Origin: Fidelibacterota bacterium | GTDB taxonomy: Bacteria; Fidelibacterota; Marinisomatia; Marinisomatales; UBA1611 | Assembly (NCBI GenBank): GCA_018692355.1 | Contig: JABHKE010000136.1 | Span: forward strand, 1-49,738 | Length of the DNA: 49,738 nucleotides | Direction: 5' to 3' | Part shown: positions 13,926-22,866 of the stretch, piece after piece | Position numbering within the stretch: the stretch's first letter is position 1 | Layout: every line of letters starts with the position of its first letter | The notes under the pieces: generated by a model | Database searches by the model: none | What the model saw: only the letters and a program-made list of their open reading frames with translations | Told to the model about the DNA's origin: nothing | Program-made: the position numbers and the translations under genes

Positions 13926-14987
13926 TTAAGTAACATTTCTCAAAAATAGTATTTCCAAAAACTTTGAGCCTATTGGGCATTCAATCATTGAATAATCCAT
14001 ACCACCGGGAATTGTAATTGAGTCACCTGTATTTAGTGAAAAAGTATTTTTTTGATCAATTTGTATGTTCAATTTTCCGTTTATAAGAAAAATAAAATGG
14101 AATTCTCCATTTTGAGTTTCTAAAGTTGATTTACTTTGTTCTAATGATCTCACTACTGAAACACGGGCTAATCCATTCGTAGCAGGATAAAATCCAAAAT
14201 CCTGTTTTTCAAATCCGGGATATCGGCACGGACGCCATTTTGCCTTTTTCGCAATATGATGGATAAAATTTTGTCCATTATAATTTCGATCAGGTTTTGT
14301 TTCACCAGTGGGGAGATTCGACTTTGGATCGGTACAGGTCATGTGACTTGCTGGTGAGCTTATCTCCACTACTTCAAACCCATCCGAATTTTCAAGTACC
14401 TGATGTCGGATTTCAGGTGGTTGCAACACGCAGTCACCCGCTTGAAAAATAAATGGACTGCCTTGGTCTTCATAAACCAATTTTGCCCAGCCTTTATTAC
14501 AAAAGATCATTTGAAACCGGATTTTATGAAAATGGACATAATCTGATACAGGCCCTGCTTTTAGAATTCTTATGTGAGATGCAATAAATCGTCCGCCGTA
14601 TCGATCCGGGATGAGGTCTCGATATTCCATTCCGGCCCGGCCGATCTTCCATTGTCCTTCCATCAATCTTGAATATTGGATGGATTGATTTCCTTCTGGA
14701 AGGATATAGGAACCATTTGGTTCATGAAACTGAATTAAAGTTCCATTTGGTGCTGTTAGATTATTGGATTTGGCTCCGGCAATAGAAATGGTTCCAGGAT
14801 GAATTGAATCATCTTTTTTGAAATGGATTCTTAATCCAAATCCATACATTATAGCTTCAGTAGGATCATCCGCCGGATAAATTGATTCCAATTGAAATCC
14901 CACTTTGTCCGAAAAAAATGATACGGTTTCATTTAAATTTCCAGAGGGGAGAACAATTTCAGCAGTTTGAATTTTAGAACCAGACAT
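13926..14987 (-). CDS. Cupin-domain protein with N-terminal VOC/glyoxalase-like region (bicupin-like)
   Basis: GRAGMEYRDLIPDR, HFHKIRFQMIFC...GDCVLQPPEIRHQ cupin motif; second degenerate cupin at the C-terminus; N-terminal 'VSFFSDKVGFQL' is VOC-like. Confidence 0.7.
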   Translation of the reverse strand: MSGSKIQTAEIVLPSGNLNETVSFFSDKVGFQLESIYPADDPTEAIMYGFGLRIHFKKDDSIHPGTISIAGAKSNNLTAPNGTLIQFHEPNGSYILPEGNQSIQYSRLMEGQWKIGRAGMEYRDLIPDRYGGRFIASHIRILKAGPVSDYVHFHKIRFQMIFCNKGWAKLVYEDQGSPFIFQAGDCVLQPPEIRHQVLENSDGFEVVEISSPASHMTCTDPKSNLPTGETKPDRNYNGQNFIHHIAKKAKWRPCRYPGFEKQDFGFYPATNGLARVSVVRSLEQSKSTLETQNGEFHFIFLINGKLNIQIDQKNTFSLNTGDSITIPGGMDYSMIECPIGSKFLEILFLRNVT

Positions 14988-15529
14988 TATTTCATTTCAT
15001 TTTCAAGGTCAACGCCTAATCCTTCTGCTATCCGGTTGATATAATTAAAATAGGAAACAACCTGAGCTGCATCGCTAATTGCATCTTCAGAAAATCCAAT
15101 TCCCGTAAGGGCATCAATATCTAATTTTTGCATATCGCCTGGCGACAGGGTCAATTTTTCTGCCCAGGCACAAAGTGCTTTATCTTTCGCAGTTAGATCT
15201 GCCTTTTTCCAATCTTTCTTTAATTGCTCAGCTAATTCCTTATTACCGACTTCATCCCGGAAGTCATTCCCGTGGGCTTCAATTCAGTATTTGCAATGAT
15301 TCACTTGGGAAACGACTGTGGCAATCATTTCTCGCTGTGCCCGGGACAGTTTCGATTCGCCAAACATGATTGCGAGATACAGCCGCATGGCTTCTTTCAA
15401 TGCAGATGGACTTTGGCTCATAATCTTTAAAATATTAAAAACACGTCCTGATCGCCGAATCCCTTTGTCGTATTCATTTTTGACAATCCCCTCAGCTTGA
15501 TCAATATCAATTGTTTTTATGAAAGTCAT
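14987..15529 (-). CDS. AhpD/CMD-like peroxidase-related protein, probable selenoprotein (in-frame TGA at 15284-15286, CxxU)
   Basis: The ORF track stops at ...VNHCKY*. Reading through TGA gives CKY-U-IEAH...ALCAWAEKLTLSP...AAQVVSYFNYINRIAEGLGVDLENEMK* (180 aa), a complete AhpD-like protein whose TAA overlaps the next ATG (TAATG at 14985-14989). Confidence 0.85.
15248..15286 (-). promoter_or_regulatory. Putative bacterial SECIS element
   Basis: mRNA reads UGA-AUUGAAGCCCACGGGAAU-GACUUC-CGGGAU-GAAGUC: a perfect 6-bp stem whose loop begins 24 nt after the UGA and has G in its second position. Confidence 0.7.
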
Positions 15530-15531
15530 TA

Positions 15532-16887
15532 TTATTCTATTTCCTCAATAAGGTCTTGATTCATCCTTGCTTCATAATCGAATCCTTCTTTTTTCCCTAG
15601 AGATTTCCCCATCCAATAGATCCCAGTTCCAATAAGCCCTCCAATCAAGACCCAAAGAAATACATTTGGCAGAGTTATGAATGTAAAATATCCCATGGTG
15701 AGTATAACAATTCCACCCATGAGCCAAAGGGCAGGGATAGGTGGCTTGAATTTAGCAGATTCATACAATGATGGGTTTACATAGGGAAGGCTAATTAATG
15801 CGATACCCTGGATCAAATAAATAATAAAAATTCCAACTAATCCTGTATTCAACAGGAAGATTGCAGATTTTGACCAGATGAGTGCAATACAAATCACAGC
15901 GCTAATGATTAAACTAACATAAGGTGTCCGCCAGGTGGGATGAATTTTCGATAAAATTGGTGGCATAAGCCGATCTTCGCTGAAAACAAAGAACATTCTG
16001 GAAGGTACGAGGATGGACCCATTGATACTGGTTAAGAAAGCACTCATGGCGCCAATGGCGACAATGCCCGATCCCCATTTTGGTAAATAAACCCCTGCAG
16101 CATCCGCCATGGCAGATTGTGATGTTGCCAGAGATTCTGCCGGAAGGACACCAAAAGCGACAAATGACATGAGCACGAAGATCACAACCGAAATCAAAAC
16201 ACCGCGAATAAAGATCATGGGCAATGTTCGGGTGGGGTCTTTCGTTTCACCTGCAATCTGGGAGAGAGTCTCGAATCCTGCATAACTGAAAAACAACATG
16301 GGCATAGCTTCCATGAGTCCGCCAATTCCTTTGGGTAAAATCGGATCATAATAGGAAAGATCGACGGCGAATAAACCAGGAAGGACCAATACCAGAATGC
16401 TGATGATTAAAATTCCCAACATGAAAGTTTGGATATGACCATAATGTTTTATTCCAACCATATTTATACCATAGAAAAAAATCAGTGCGATCGAAGCCCA
16501 TACTTTTGGATCTGCGGTGGGATAAAAATAAGTCAAATATTCCCCAAAACTTGTAGACATGAAAGCAATGGCACCAATGAAGGCAAGGAGTTTCATCCAC
16601 ATGGCAATAAACCCCAGATAATAATTTTTGAAGGTTCTGGAAATATGAATGTAGGCACCCCCAGGACGATTACCAAGAGGCGTGGAAACAAATACACTAT
16701 ATGTCAGGGCAGTGCAAATAATAATAGGTGCAAAAAGAAGGTAGGCCAAAGGGACAGAAGATCCGGCAACCGCACCGGCTTCACCTGTAACCCTGAATAT
16801 ACCTGCACCCACCAAAATTCCAATTATGGTGGCATATCCAGAAAGTGGGCCTAAGTCCCGGCGGAGTTTGTTTTGTTTATTTATCAT
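15532..16887 (-). CDS. APC family amino acid permease
   Basis: LRRDLG...IGILVGAGIF, GGAYIHISRTF, FSYAGFE...AGETKDPTRTLP; ~12 TMs. Confidence 0.92.
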   Translation of the reverse strand: MINKQNKLRRDLGPLSGYATIIGILVGAGIFRVTGEAGAVAGSSVPLAYLLFAPIIICTALTYSVFVSTPLGNRPGGAYIHISRTFKNYYLGFIAMWMKLLAFIGAIAFMSTSFGEYLTYFYPTADPKVWASIALIFFYGINMVGIKHYGHIQTFMLGILIISILVLVLPGLFAVDLSYYDPILPKGIGGLMEAMPMLFFSYAGFETLSQIAGETKDPTRTLPMIFIRGVLISVVIFVLMSFVAFGVLPAESLATSQSAMADAAGVYLPKWGSGIVAIGAMSAFLTSINGSILVPSRMFFVFSEDRLMPPILSKIHPTWRTPYVSLIISAVICIALIWSKSAIFLLNTGLVGIFIIYLIQGIALISLPYVNPSLYESAKFKPPIPALWLMGGIVILTMGYFTFITLPNVFLWVLIGGLIGTGIYWMGKSLGKKEGFDYEARMNQDLIEEIE

Positions 16888-17027: not shown

Positions 17028-17648
17028 TTATTGAAACAACTTCCTCATCTGATTCACCCCATTCCTAACACAGATTTCCATGGCACGGTGGAGTTCAAGA
17101 CTGCTGTACCAATAGGAATTGGACCATACCAATGCTTCGGAATCTGCATCAATCATTTTGAGCATAATCCCGACTCTGGCACTTGTATAATTCACTTTAC
17201 TCCCAGAAGAAATGGCGCCACCATCAGTTTTGGTAGTTGTGGATGATGCTGTTTTTGCATTATCTGCGTCTGCATCGGCTGAAGCAGATTGGCTCACAGT
17301 TGTGGTGGTTGAACCATGGTCTTCGTATCGATAGGGAACAATGATTATTTCTGAATCAGTGAATTCCGTAATAATGCAAGAGAGTTCAAGGGTTTTCCCT
17401 CCATGTCCAAGGGTTATTGTGGGAAAATCACTTGATAATTCATTTACATTAAATCCATACTTCAGGAAACTATGGGAAAGACTAGTTTCAACCATTTCAC
17501 CAGAGCCGGAAATATAGGCATGATCATTAACTGGGATAATTTTAATATAACTCACAGTGGTAAAATCATAACTCTCATTTACAGCGGGGCCATTCCAGCA
17601 GGAAGCAAATAAGAAAATTATTGAAATAGAAAAAAATGGTTTTATCAT
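17028..17648 (-). CDS. Hypothetical lipoprotein
   Basis: Lipobox-like FASC17; C-terminal 'ARVGIMLKMIDADSEALVW' resembles CsgG/LpoB-like folds; Ser/Thr/Ala-rich insertion. Confidence 0.6.
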   Translation of the reverse strand: MIKPFFSISIIFLFASCWNGPAVNESYDFTTVSYIKIIPVNDHAYISGSGEMVETSLSHSFLKYGFNVNELSSDFPTITLGHGGKTLELSCIITEFTDSEIIIVPYRYEDHGSTTTTVSQSASADADADNAKTASSTTTKTDGGAISSGSKVNYTSARVGIMLKMIDADSEALVWSNSYWYSSLELHRAMEICVRNGVNQMRKLFQ

Positions 17649-17947
17649 TCCTGGCTCAAGCTTTGGATGTGCACCTTGGCTTCACTACTTAAAATTTCAT
17701 TTTTAGAATATTTTAAGCAATATTGCCATGCTATCAACGCGTGATTGGGTTCATCCAAGGCTTCATGAAGTAAAGCTTTCATGCGATAGATATCTGGATT
17801 GGTCATATCACTTTTTTGAGAAACAGAAATATGGCCTAAAGCTTCCTTGTACATCCCAGCTTTCATTGCAGCGGATGCTTTTGCCATTGCATCTCCGGAT
17901 CCACCTAATAAAAGAGTGGTGGCTAATATAAGTGAAAAATACTTCAT
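17645..17947 (-). CDS. Small exported TPR-like protein
   Basis: Signal peptide followed by helical TPR-like pattern (YKEALGH...YRMKALLHEAL...ALIAWQ); overlaps both neighbours. Confidence 0.6.
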   Translation of the reverse strand: MKYFSLILATTLLLGGSGDAMAKASAAMKAGMYKEALGHISVSQKSDMTNPDIYRMKALLHEALDEPNHALIAWQYCLKYSKNEILSSEAKVHIQSLSQE

Positions 17948-20545: not shown

Positions 20546-21727
20546 ATGCAACGGCAATCAGTTATTGTTGCGGCGAAACGGACACCCATCGGCGCATTTC
20601 AAGGTAATTTATCATCCGTATTGGCTCCAAAGCTTGGAGCAATTGCGATTAAAGCAGTAGTGGAAGAAACTGGCATCGATAAATCCCAAATAAATGAAGT
20701 CATCATGGGAAATGTTTTATCAGCTGGAATCGGACAAGCCCCGGCAAGGCAGGCAAGCATTCAAGCAGGATTACCCAATTCGGTAGAGGCGCTGACCATC
20801 AACAAAATGTGCGGTTCTGGCTTAAAAGCAGTGATGATGGCTGACCAAGTTATTCGCGGCGGTGATGCGGATGTTGTAATCGCTGGCGGTATGGAAAGTA
20901 TGTCCAATGCACCCTATCTCCTGCAAAATGCTCGTGCTGGTCAACGGCTTGGTCATGGAAAAATGATTGATAGTATGATTCACGATGGCCTTTGGGATGC
21001 TTACAATGATACCCATATGGGCAATTGCGCCGAAATGCTTTCTAAAGATCGGAATTATACGCGTGAAGCCCAGGATGAATTTGCCGTTATATCCTACAAA
21101 CGTGCCCAAAAAGCACAGGCAGAAGGTGTTTTCGATTCAGAAATCGTTTCCGTTGAAATACCTCAGAGAAATGGAAACCCAATAAAAGTTTTGGAAGATG
21201 AGGAACCGGGTAAGGCCAGATTTGATAAAATTTCTACACTACGACCAGCTTTTGAAAAGGACGGTGCCATCACTGCAGCCAATGCTTCCAAACTGAACGA
21301 TGGGGCCGCTGCTGTTTTAATTATGAGTGCAGAAAAAGCCAATGAATTGGGACTCTCTCCGATTGCACGTATTAATGCTCAGGCTTCTGCCGCCCACGAA
21401 CCGGAATGGTTTACTACCGCACCGGGGAAAGCCATTGGCAAGGTATTAAAAAAAGCGAATCTATCAGCAAATGATATCGGTCTTTGGGAAATCAATGAAG
21501 CATTTTCCGTAGTTACTATGGCAACTATTGATGATTTTAAAATTGATCCTGCTAAAGTAAATATTTATGGTGGTGCTGTGGCTATCGGGCACCCCATCGG
21601 TGCTTCCGGAGCACGGATATTTACAACCTTGATGAATGGTATGGTCAGGACCGAAACAAAATACGGATTAGCAACTCTTTGTATTGGTGGTGGAGAAGCA
21701 TCCGCTTTGATCGTGGAAAAAGTATGA
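20546..21727 (+). CDS. Acetyl-CoA C-acetyltransferase (thiolase)
   Basis: NKMCGSG, EINEAF, GHPIGASG, LCIGGG. Confidence 0.96.
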   Translation: MQRQSVIVAAKRTPIGAFQGNLSSVLAPKLGAIAIKAVVEETGIDKSQINEVIMGNVLSAGIGQAPARQASIQAGLPNSVEALTINKMCGSGLKAVMMADQVIRGGDADVVIAGGMESMSNAPYLLQNARAGQRLGHGKMIDSMIHDGLWDAYNDTHMGNCAEMLSKDRNYTREAQDEFAVISYKRAQKAQAEGVFDSEIVSVEIPQRNGNPIKVLEDEEPGKARFDKISTLRPAFEKDGAITAANASKLNDGAAAVLIMSAEKANELGLSPIARINAQASAAHEPEWFTTAPGKAIGKVLKKANLSANDIGLWEINEAFSVVTMATIDDFKIDPAKVNIYGGAVAIGHPIGASGARIFTTLMNGMVRTETKYGLATLCIGGGEASALIVEKV

Positions 21728-22866
21728 TCGATTTCACCCTAACATCTGAACAGGAACTCATCCAAAAAACTGCCCGGGAATTTGCAAAAGAACATTTAGC
21801 ACCCGGTGTAATTGAACGGGATGATAAAGCTGAATTTCCTACTGAACAAATTAAAATGATGGGTGAATTAGGCTTTATGGGCATGATGGTTCCGGAAGAA
21901 TGGGGCGGTGCAGGTTTTGATACATTAACCTATGTAATCGCTATGGAAGAGATCGCCGCTATTGAACTTGCAACATCTACGGTCATGTCTGTAAATAATT
22001 CTCTCGTTTGTCAACTTTTTGTGGATTATGGTACCGAAGATCAAAAAGAAAAGTATTTAAAACCACTGGCAATAGGTGAAAAACTAGGTGCCTACAGTTT
22101 AAGCGAACCCGAATCAGGTTCAGATGCCAGCAACATGAGAACGTTTGCAAAAAAAGAAGGGAATCATTATGTGATCAATGGAACCAAAAATTGGGTCACA
22201 AATGGAATTAATGGGGATATTGTCATTCTATTTTGTATGACAGAAAAAAGTGTTGGTTATAAAGGAATTTCTGCATTTGTTGTTGAAAAAGGGACACCTG
22301 GGTTATCTACTGGAAAAAAAGAAAACAAATTGGGAATTCGTGCGTCGGACACGTGTGAACTCTATTTTGAGAATTGTCGGACTCCTGGTGAAAATATGAT
22401 TGGTGAAGAAGGTCAGGGATTCAAAGTGGCTATGAAAGCATTGGGCGGTGGACGAATCGGAATTGCCGCACAGGCACTTGGATTAGCCCGTGCTGCATTG
22501 GATGCAAGTATATCCTACGCAAAAGAACGAAAACAGTTTGGAAAAACCATCGGCGAATTTGGTGCTATCCAGAATAAGTTGGCCGATATGGCTACAGAAA
22601 TTGATGCTGCACGAATGCTGGTATGGCGTGCAGCAAAATTAAAGGACGACGGTAAAAATTATTATCGAGAAAGTTCCATGGCAAAACTTTATGCATCATC
22701 CACAGCCATGAAAGCAGCAACAGAATGTGTGCAAATTCATGGTGGGTATGGGTACATGCAGGAATATGGTGTGGAACGACTCATGAGGGATGCGAAAATT
22801 ACACAGATCTATGAGGGCACATCCGAAATCCAACAACTTGTTATTGGCAGAGATTTATTAAAATGA
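21724..22866 (+). CDS. Acyl-CoA dehydrogenase (short/branched-chain type)
   Basis: [48 protein letters not shown]. Start ATG 21724 overlaps the thiolase stop (ATGA). Confidence 0.95.

Follow-up and report, generated by a model that had tools for sequence, protein, structure and literature searches.

A probable AhpD-like selenoprotein gene with a CxxU redox motif and a candidate SECIS hairpin in a Marinisomatales genome

The minus strand of a 49,738-nucleotide stretch of Fidelibacterota DNA (contig JABHKE010000136.1; the whole stretch is called the window here) very probably carries one complete AhpD-like selenoprotein gene, in which the UGA of codon 82 is read as selenocysteine (Sec) under the guidance of a short mRNA hairpin that we have named H1 (Table 1). 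The 180-residue product is a member of the TIGR01926 family and of the CMD fold. The TGA is interpreted as a Sec codon because it is conserved among the relatives of this genome, because the Sec-decoding machinery and other selenoproteins are encoded in the same genome, and because TGA is otherwise used as a stop.

Table 1. Positions, within the window, of the AhpD-like gene, its key codons, the two candidate hairpins and the adjoining genes.
Feature	Position	Strand	Remark
Probable AhpD-like (TIGR01926, peroxidase-related) selenoprotein gene, complete	14987..15529	minus	180 codons + TAA stop
In-frame TGA, predicted Sec82	15284..15286	minus	Position 2 of the C79-x-x-U82 redox motif; TGA in 37/37 orthologs
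TGC, Cys79	15293..15295	minus	Opens the CxxU motif; resolving role presumed
CAC, His86 (CxxU-x3-H)	15272..15274	minus	H kept in 37/37 orthologs
GAA, Glu67 (E-x11-C)	15329..15331	minus	E kept in 37/37 orthologs
H1, most likely SECIS hairpin	15248..15265	minus	6-bp stem GACUUC/GAAGUC, loop CGGGAU
H2, competing hairpin, mutually exclusive with H1	15256..15275	minus	Slightly more stable in this sequence, less conserved
APC-family amino-acid permease, directly upstream (2-nt gap)	15532..16887	minus	Conserved neighbour
353-aa two-cupin protein, directly downstream (1-nt overlap)	13926..14987	minus	Partly conserved neighbour

Translated with read-through, the gene contains a single in-frame TGA, in the context NHCKY-U-IEAH. 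The first-pass annotation of this DNA had described an 81-residue ORF that stops at a TGA standing in the place of the second Cys of a CxxC-x3-H motif, followed by a frame that stays open for another 98 residues and that meets the next gene in a TAATG junction; our translation agrees with this description and adds the strand, which had not been given. The last of the 98 residues encoded after codon 82 are FNYINRIAEGLGVDLENEMK, and the TAA stop codon (14987-14989) shares one base with the ATG of the following gene (14985-14987). The same annotation expected that a standard procedure would split the gene, and this was seen for a plain ORF call, which under table 11 cuts it into an 81-aa ORF and a 55-aa ORF.

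The read-through protein matches the NCBIfam family TIGR01926 ('peroxidase-related enzyme') with 155.3 bits (the cutoff is 81.8), residues 5-174 being aligned with profile positions 4-174 of 178, and it also matches the Pfam CMD domain (5.7e-12). Its best relative of solved structure is 6k40, named 'AhpD' (2.9e-28 over residues 8-173), whose CVYC aligns to CKYU, and in 3c1l it is a CYYC that is aligned to C79-K-Y-U82. The earlier assignment to the AhpD-like enzymes is therefore borne out by TIGR01926, CMD and 6k40 alike. In fact, full-length sequence homology extends to the Cys-type 'peroxidase-related' AhpD-core structures 6k40, 3c1l, 2oyo, 2pfx, and 2prr (E-values from 2.9e-28 to 4.7e-17), which present their CxxC-x3-H site in the alignment and have a Cys where Sec82 stands, and on this homology, a likeness of sequence alone, the protein is placed in the AhpD core fold. 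The residues E67, C79, U82, and H86 form an E-x11-C-x2-U-x3-H arrangement that is conserved in 37/37 clade-A orthologs and corresponds to E-x11-C-x2-C-x3-H, which we take to be the AhpD-type catalytic signature; the second Cys of the AhpD motif is the nucleophilic residue.

Canonical AhpD, i.e., alkylhydroperoxidase D, is the AhpC-reducing enzyme of mycobacteria. It shares with the Sec protein the CMD fold family and the E-x11-C-x2-C-x3-H type of active site, but the Sec protein does not reach the cutoff of the canonical family TIGR00777 (17 bits versus 191.95). Two seleno-families that have related AhpD-type domains and the CxxU Sec site in common with our protein are also different families, namely the AhpD-related (seleno)protein NF041238, the 'hypothetical protein 1' of the Sargasso Sea (66.6 versus a cutoff of 175), and the YciW-related (seleno)protein NF053654 (18.8 versus a cutoff of 310).

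The position of the TGA is conserved well beyond this genome. Exactly one TGA was found in 20 of the 24 match rows obtained from 41 close genomes. Once translated, 9 orthologs (64-99% identity) share this TGA in the CxxU column, as do 9 sequences of a paralog clade (41-47%) and 1 further diverged copy. All 3 full-length rows free of stops come from more distant relatives and have a CxxC motif instead, i.e., CHYC (G023), CSYC (G036), and CDYC (G028). When the search was extended to 301 genomes of the phylum, 90 of them had a match, and of the 101 match rows (a table counted by hand) 78 contain the TGA, including all 30 rows with at least 62% identity, and 23 have no stop. The 37 clade-A orthologs that were fetched, all of them with U in the E-x11-C-x2-U-x3-H motif, include a copy of 48% identity whose MAG bears the label Phycisphaeraceae, and constraint at the protein level is seen on both sides of the TGA down to that identity, the 98 C-terminal residues being strongly conserved. 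The genome of the window itself encodes one member of the paralog clade, on contig C37, which also has the CxxU motif and scores 149.7 bits on TIGR01926. With TGA at codon 82 in 37/37 orthologs, the feature is thus not due to chance. The first-pass annotation had proposed a search for homologs with Cys or TGA at this codon and had named TGC or TGT in all close relatives as a sign of a nonsense mutation or a sequencing error; TGA was found in the orthologs and in the paralog clade, Cys appears only in the more distant relatives, and no examined close relative has TGC or TGT at codon 82, in favour of Sec and against a nonsense mutation. As a separate observation, one relative (G026) has a copy of the gene that is broken by a frame change just past the TGA.

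Contigs from sequencing runs also carry this region. It is present in full in 13 runs of marine metagenomes, any of which may be the source, and in part in 6 runs of RNA libraries that belong to three studies. The TGA is bridged, unchanged, by one DNA contig whose run was not flagged as a possible source and by RNA-library contigs from two studies, which are no proof of transcription; the bridging contigs show no change at 15284-15286 or inside H1. Since independent DNA and RNA-library contigs carry the same codon, the TGA is not an assembly error.

The genome encodes most of the dedicated machinery for Sec decoding. The selA (509.6 bits) and selB (316 bits) genes are adjacent on contig C63, both over their cutoffs, and a Sec-type selD, which has a TGA of its own giving GSGUACK, lies across two contig ends (344.9 and 150.8 bits, over cutoffs); selA is also above its cutoff in 38/41 relatives. 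No selC was found in this MAG with Rfam and ARAGORN, the best Rfam match to tRNA-Sec (46.8 bits) being a tRNA-Ser, but this absence is weak evidence because the MAG is 86% complete and yields only 21 tRNAs by ARAGORN. A tRNA-Sec was detected at 58-70 bits in 29/40 relatives, 5 of them of the same genus, and ARAGORN called a tRNA-SeC with anticodon TCA in both relative loci that were checked. The region that corresponds to the flank of a congener's selC gene runs up to position 2836 of contig C61, whose length is 2837 nt, and since the contig ends at that point, selC is likely to lie in an assembly gap. Thus, the search for selA, selB, selC, and selD that had been recommended for this genome returned selA, selB, and selD, and for selC a presence in relatives and an expected place at a contig end.

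Other genes of this genome are predicted to use Sec as well. An Omp28-related selenoprotein (NF045500) scores 602 bits against a cutoff of 200, and two further genes encode a peroxiredoxin with TxxU and a thioredoxin-like protein with UxxC; in all three, the U lies inside the matched domain. A genome-wide codon-score scan for TGA-containing ORFs was noisy and returned mostly antisense frames and same-frame neighbours. It left 343 candidates past the motif filter, of which 8 were picked by hand for a domain search: 3 have domains across the U and 3 have no family, the U of the candidate on C194 lies outside its cupin domain, and the one on C14 has only C-terminal secretion-tail domains. The TGA codon is otherwise an ordinary stop. 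The first-pass annotation had cited parB and a thiolase gene in this respect, and TGA in fact ends 4 of the 37 ORFs of at least 150 aa in the window (parB, thiolase, acyl-CoA dehydrogenase, and an NhaC-type antiporter), in all four of which the Pfam domains run to the C-terminus, as well as 215 of the 851 ORFs of at least 300 aa in the genome.

The sequence just past the UGA is constrained at the RNA level. Within the gene, synonymous diversity among orthologs is lowest there, the eight lowest 8-codon intervals all falling within codons 77-100, and the stem of H1 uses codons that this genome picks in a minority of its synonymous choices (GAC 18.5%, TTC 24.6%, CGG 14.8%, and GTC 12.6%). H1 consists of a 5' arm at 15260-15265, a loop at 15254-15259, and a 3' arm at 15248-15253. 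The GACUUC/GAAGUC stem pointed out in the first-pass annotation does exist and is this conserved hairpin, but the 24 nt that had been given as its distance from the UGA is that of the loop, the stem starting at 18 nt. Over 35 distinct orthologs, 208/210 cells at the six inner positions of the H1 stem hold a base pair. A G-C replaced by A-U and a U-A replaced by C-G are the two double changes of H1, each seen in one sequence, and its loop begins with C-G-[G/U] in 35/35. According to the bSECIS rules in the sections of PMC13188914 at hand, the apical loop has 3-9 nt with a G at its first or second position, the upper stem has 4-16 bp, the distance from the UGA is 16-37 nt, and the MFE is -7.5 kcal/mol or lower. 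H1 fits the bSECISearch consensus given in those sections in its 6-nt loop, where a G at position 2 precedes G/U, its 6-bp stem, and its distance of 24 nt; as regards the energy limit, H1 alone falls short of it at -6.9 kcal/mol and comes to -9.6 only with its lower stem, and H2 has -7.6. A search of Rfam around the UGA (14900-15600, E up to 10) gave only chance CRISPR and snoRNA matches, and the 61 nt past the UGA fold no better than shuffled sequences (z = 0.07). Shuffle controls on the paired-column counts were uninformative because the alignment columns are almost invariant. In clade B, the hairpin can be drawn in two registers, 79% and 91% paired; a compensatory change that had been seen by eye in this clade was discarded, as neither register contains a double change.

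It could be argued that the gene is a true selenoprotein gene whose SECIS is not the GACUUC/GAAGUC hairpin but H2 or a larger structure, and we regard this as unlikely, although it is the alternative with most in its favour. In the sequence of the window H2 is the MFE hairpin, with a pair probability of about 0.7 against about 0.1 for H1; it is paired in 229/245 cells (93.5%) over the 35 orthologs, and it has the invariant codons GAC-TTC-CGG in common with H1. However, its mismatches fall within the stem, where pair 18-26 is open in 8/35 orthologs, pair 13-30 in 4/35, and pair 17-27 in 3/35, and the MFE fold retains at least 5 pairs of H2 in only 3/35 orthologs, as compared with 19/35 for H1. 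Pairs 12-31 and 19-25 of H2 each have one double change, and a single divergent sequence accounts for both. Moreover, the loop of H2 goes against the published rule on the early G, since it begins with A in 34/35 orthologs, this one included, and has no G at the first two positions in 32/35. H1 is therefore preferred on the comparison across orthologs, and a SECIS element is probably present, most likely in the form of H1.

The remaining alternatives concern the UGA itself. If UGA mostly terminated translation, the main product would be the 81-aa fragment, and the full-length Sec protein would appear only under a rich supply of selenium. As a rule, termination competes with the insertion of Sec, and H1 is weak on its own, but the 98 residues beyond the UGA are strongly conserved, and the fragment would be devoid of an active site because the CMD domain and His86 lie across or past the UGA; as a description of the main output of the gene, this is very improbable. 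Even less credit can be given to a nonsense mutation or a sequencing or assembly error that would make the locus a pseudogene or two fragments. The split frame under table 11, the missing selC, and the frame-broken copy of G026 could be read in that sense, but they stand against the same-codon TGA in all 37 orthologs, which come from independent assemblies, and in the paralog clade, against the constraint on both halves of the protein down to 48% identity, and against the independent DNA run and the RNA-library contigs of two studies that keep the TGA. A genome-wide reassignment of TGA, e.g., to Trp or Gly, so that residue 82 would not be Sec, is scarcely conceivable either: the open frame alone speaks for it, but TGA ends about a quarter of the long ORFs counted above and four window genes whose domains are complete at that point, the homologs have Cys at the aligned position, and dedicated Sec genes are present.

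Taking codon 82 as Sec, the established bacterial mechanism suggests that SelB, carrying Sec-tRNA(Sec), would bind the mRNA hairpin located 18-35 nt past the UGA (GACUUC-CGGGAU-GAAGUC) and would deliver Sec to the ribosome at codon 82, so that termination would not occur. If the protein works as its AhpD-type homologs do, the nucleophile would be Sec82, with Cys79 resolving it as a selenenylsulfide and with help from Glu67 and His86. The redox centre C79-x-x-U82 would then most likely cycle between the selenol/thiol and the selenenylsulfide forms, and the cycle might reduce a peroxide, or return an oxidised partner, for instance a peroxiredoxin, to its reduced form.

The gene neighbourhood differs from that of canonical AhpD, which is encoded next to ahpC and reduces AhpC, whereas a permease and a two-cupin protein adjoin the gene here. 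No peroxiredoxin gene and no ahpC adjoin the Sec-AhpD-like gene in the window, and the Sec-peroxiredoxin of this genome is located away from it, on contig C188. The permease is found upstream in 8/13 other clade-A loci, and the two-cupin protein, which has no NCBIfam match, downstream in 5/13, several loci having flanks too short to tell in either case. Loci whose permeases are as little as 71% identical still show the pairing, and two clade-B paralogs also have a distant permease next to them. It is conceivable, though unlikely on the present evidence, that the APC permease, the Sec-AhpD-like protein, and the two-cupin protein form a dedicated module that imports and redox-processes a specific compound, rather than serving general peroxide scavenging; such a compound might be amino-acid-like and sulfur-, selenium-, or peroxide-bearing, and would be handled by deep-ocean Marinimicrobia. 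In the available sections of the family literature (PMC1088965, PMC2398784, PMC13188914), nothing is said of this permease neighbour.

The family to which the gene belongs is already known. According to the sections available of each source, the Sargasso Sea data of 2005 yielded an AhpD-like selenoprotein family with 27 sequences (PMC1088965); 'AhpD-like 1' (COG2128, CxxU) was fourth in the Global Ocean Sampling (GOS) family table of 2008 with 299 sequences (PMC2398784); the 2026 review has a table row reading 'AhpD-like protein, TIGR01926, CxxU' (PMC13188914); and BSepDB uses the AhpD-like family as its browsing example (PMC13326102). The statement of the first-pass annotation that Sec-containing AhpD-like proteins are known in marine bacteria is in agreement with the first three of these sources, as far as the parts consulted go. 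TIGR01926, the CxxU motif, the marine setting, a SECIS-type hairpin, and Cys homologs are common to the published family, as described in those parts, and to the gene of the window, which shows nothing different in kind. The gene is a correct annotation catch within an already published family and not a new kind of selenoprotein, and it leaves the knowledge of selenoproteins unchanged, as its family, its motif, and its type of SECIS have each been published. Our literature search found no paper linking the AhpD-like selenoprotein family to Marinimicrobia: the string 'Marinimicrobi' is absent from the text of PMC13326102 and PMC13188914, and in the sections of PMC8318568 at hand, Marinimicrobia are named only among the reconstructed genomes.

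The value of this observation is one of annotation. A plain gene call splits the gene, as it does the paralog on C37 and at least 3 other selenoprotein genes of this genome. SAR406/Marinimicrobia are an abundant group of the deep ocean and of oxygen-minimum zones, and redox inventories of this group made with split selenoprotein genes therefore undercount peroxide/thiol enzymes and miss the dependence on selenium. The TGA form dominates the AhpD-like family across the phylum, and the use of Sec is general in the order Marinisomatales, as seen from selA, which is over its cutoff in 38 of the 41 genomes compared.

The genome that holds the window (G000) encodes a second AhpD-like protein, a paralog of the window gene (locus L043) whose in-frame TGA falls in a CxxU motif (context NQCHYU, with U as Sec) and whose TIGR01926 score is 149.7 bits. 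The TGA is present in all of the copies of its paralog clade seen among close relatives (9/9). Beyond the window, the genes located in contigs C188, C139, and C211 are likely three additional selenoprotein genes of this genome.

Coordinates of the genes and ORFs discussed in the text (G000, genome holding the window; C, contig)
Feature	Location	Strand	Remarks
AhpD-like paralog, locus L043	G000:C37:1655-2206	(-)	41% identical; in-frame TGA
BCP/PrxQ-like peroxiredoxin with FTPGU	G000:C188:7267-7773	(-)	likely selenoprotein gene
Thioredoxin-like and TPR protein with WUSWC	G000:C139:2719-3756	(-)	likely selenoprotein gene
Omp28-related likely selenoprotein with NUPYC	G000:C211:4858-5994	(+)	NF045500, 602 bits
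selD, in two pieces at two contig ends	G000:C26:5328-5633 and G000:C109:15480-16259		
Thiolase ORF	window 20546-21727		TGA stop
Acyl-CoA dehydrogenase, longest ORF	window 21679-22866		

Concerning the Sec machinery, the N-terminal part of selD contains an in-frame TGA (context GSGUACK), so that SelD, too, is a selenoprotein in G000. The synteny with the flank of the tRNA-Sec gene of a congener ends at a contig end (G000:C61, 1547-2836 of 2837), and this is likely where the missing selC would belong.

In G026, a genome of the same order, the reading frame of the window gene's ortholog is disrupted a few codons past the Sec codon by a change of frame (L033/L044; G026:C20:2718-3261); this copy may be a pseudogene, or the assembly may be wrong here. 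Another ortholog, L051, is 48% identical and lies in a contig titled uncultured Phycisphaeraceae, from a MAG whose label places it in another phylum. It keeps the CxxU motif, and the stem of its H1 hairpin, the putative SECIS, is compensated. Its presence in such a MAG may be due to horizontal transfer, or to an error in binning or labelling.

An APC permease, like that directly upstream of the window gene, adjoins two AhpD-like paralogs of clade B, L040 (G032) and L041 (G013), and thus the permease/AhpD-like pairing recurs across paralog clades. These permeases are distant from that of the window (26-29% identity).

Within the window, two neighbouring ORFs of 206 and 100 aa (17028-17947, (-) strand) matched no Pfam family at E values up to 0.001. 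The thiolase ORF shares 49 nt (21679-21727), read in another frame, with the longest ORF for the acyl-CoA dehydrogenase; the true start of the dehydrogenase is probably a codon downstream of the longest-ORF start.
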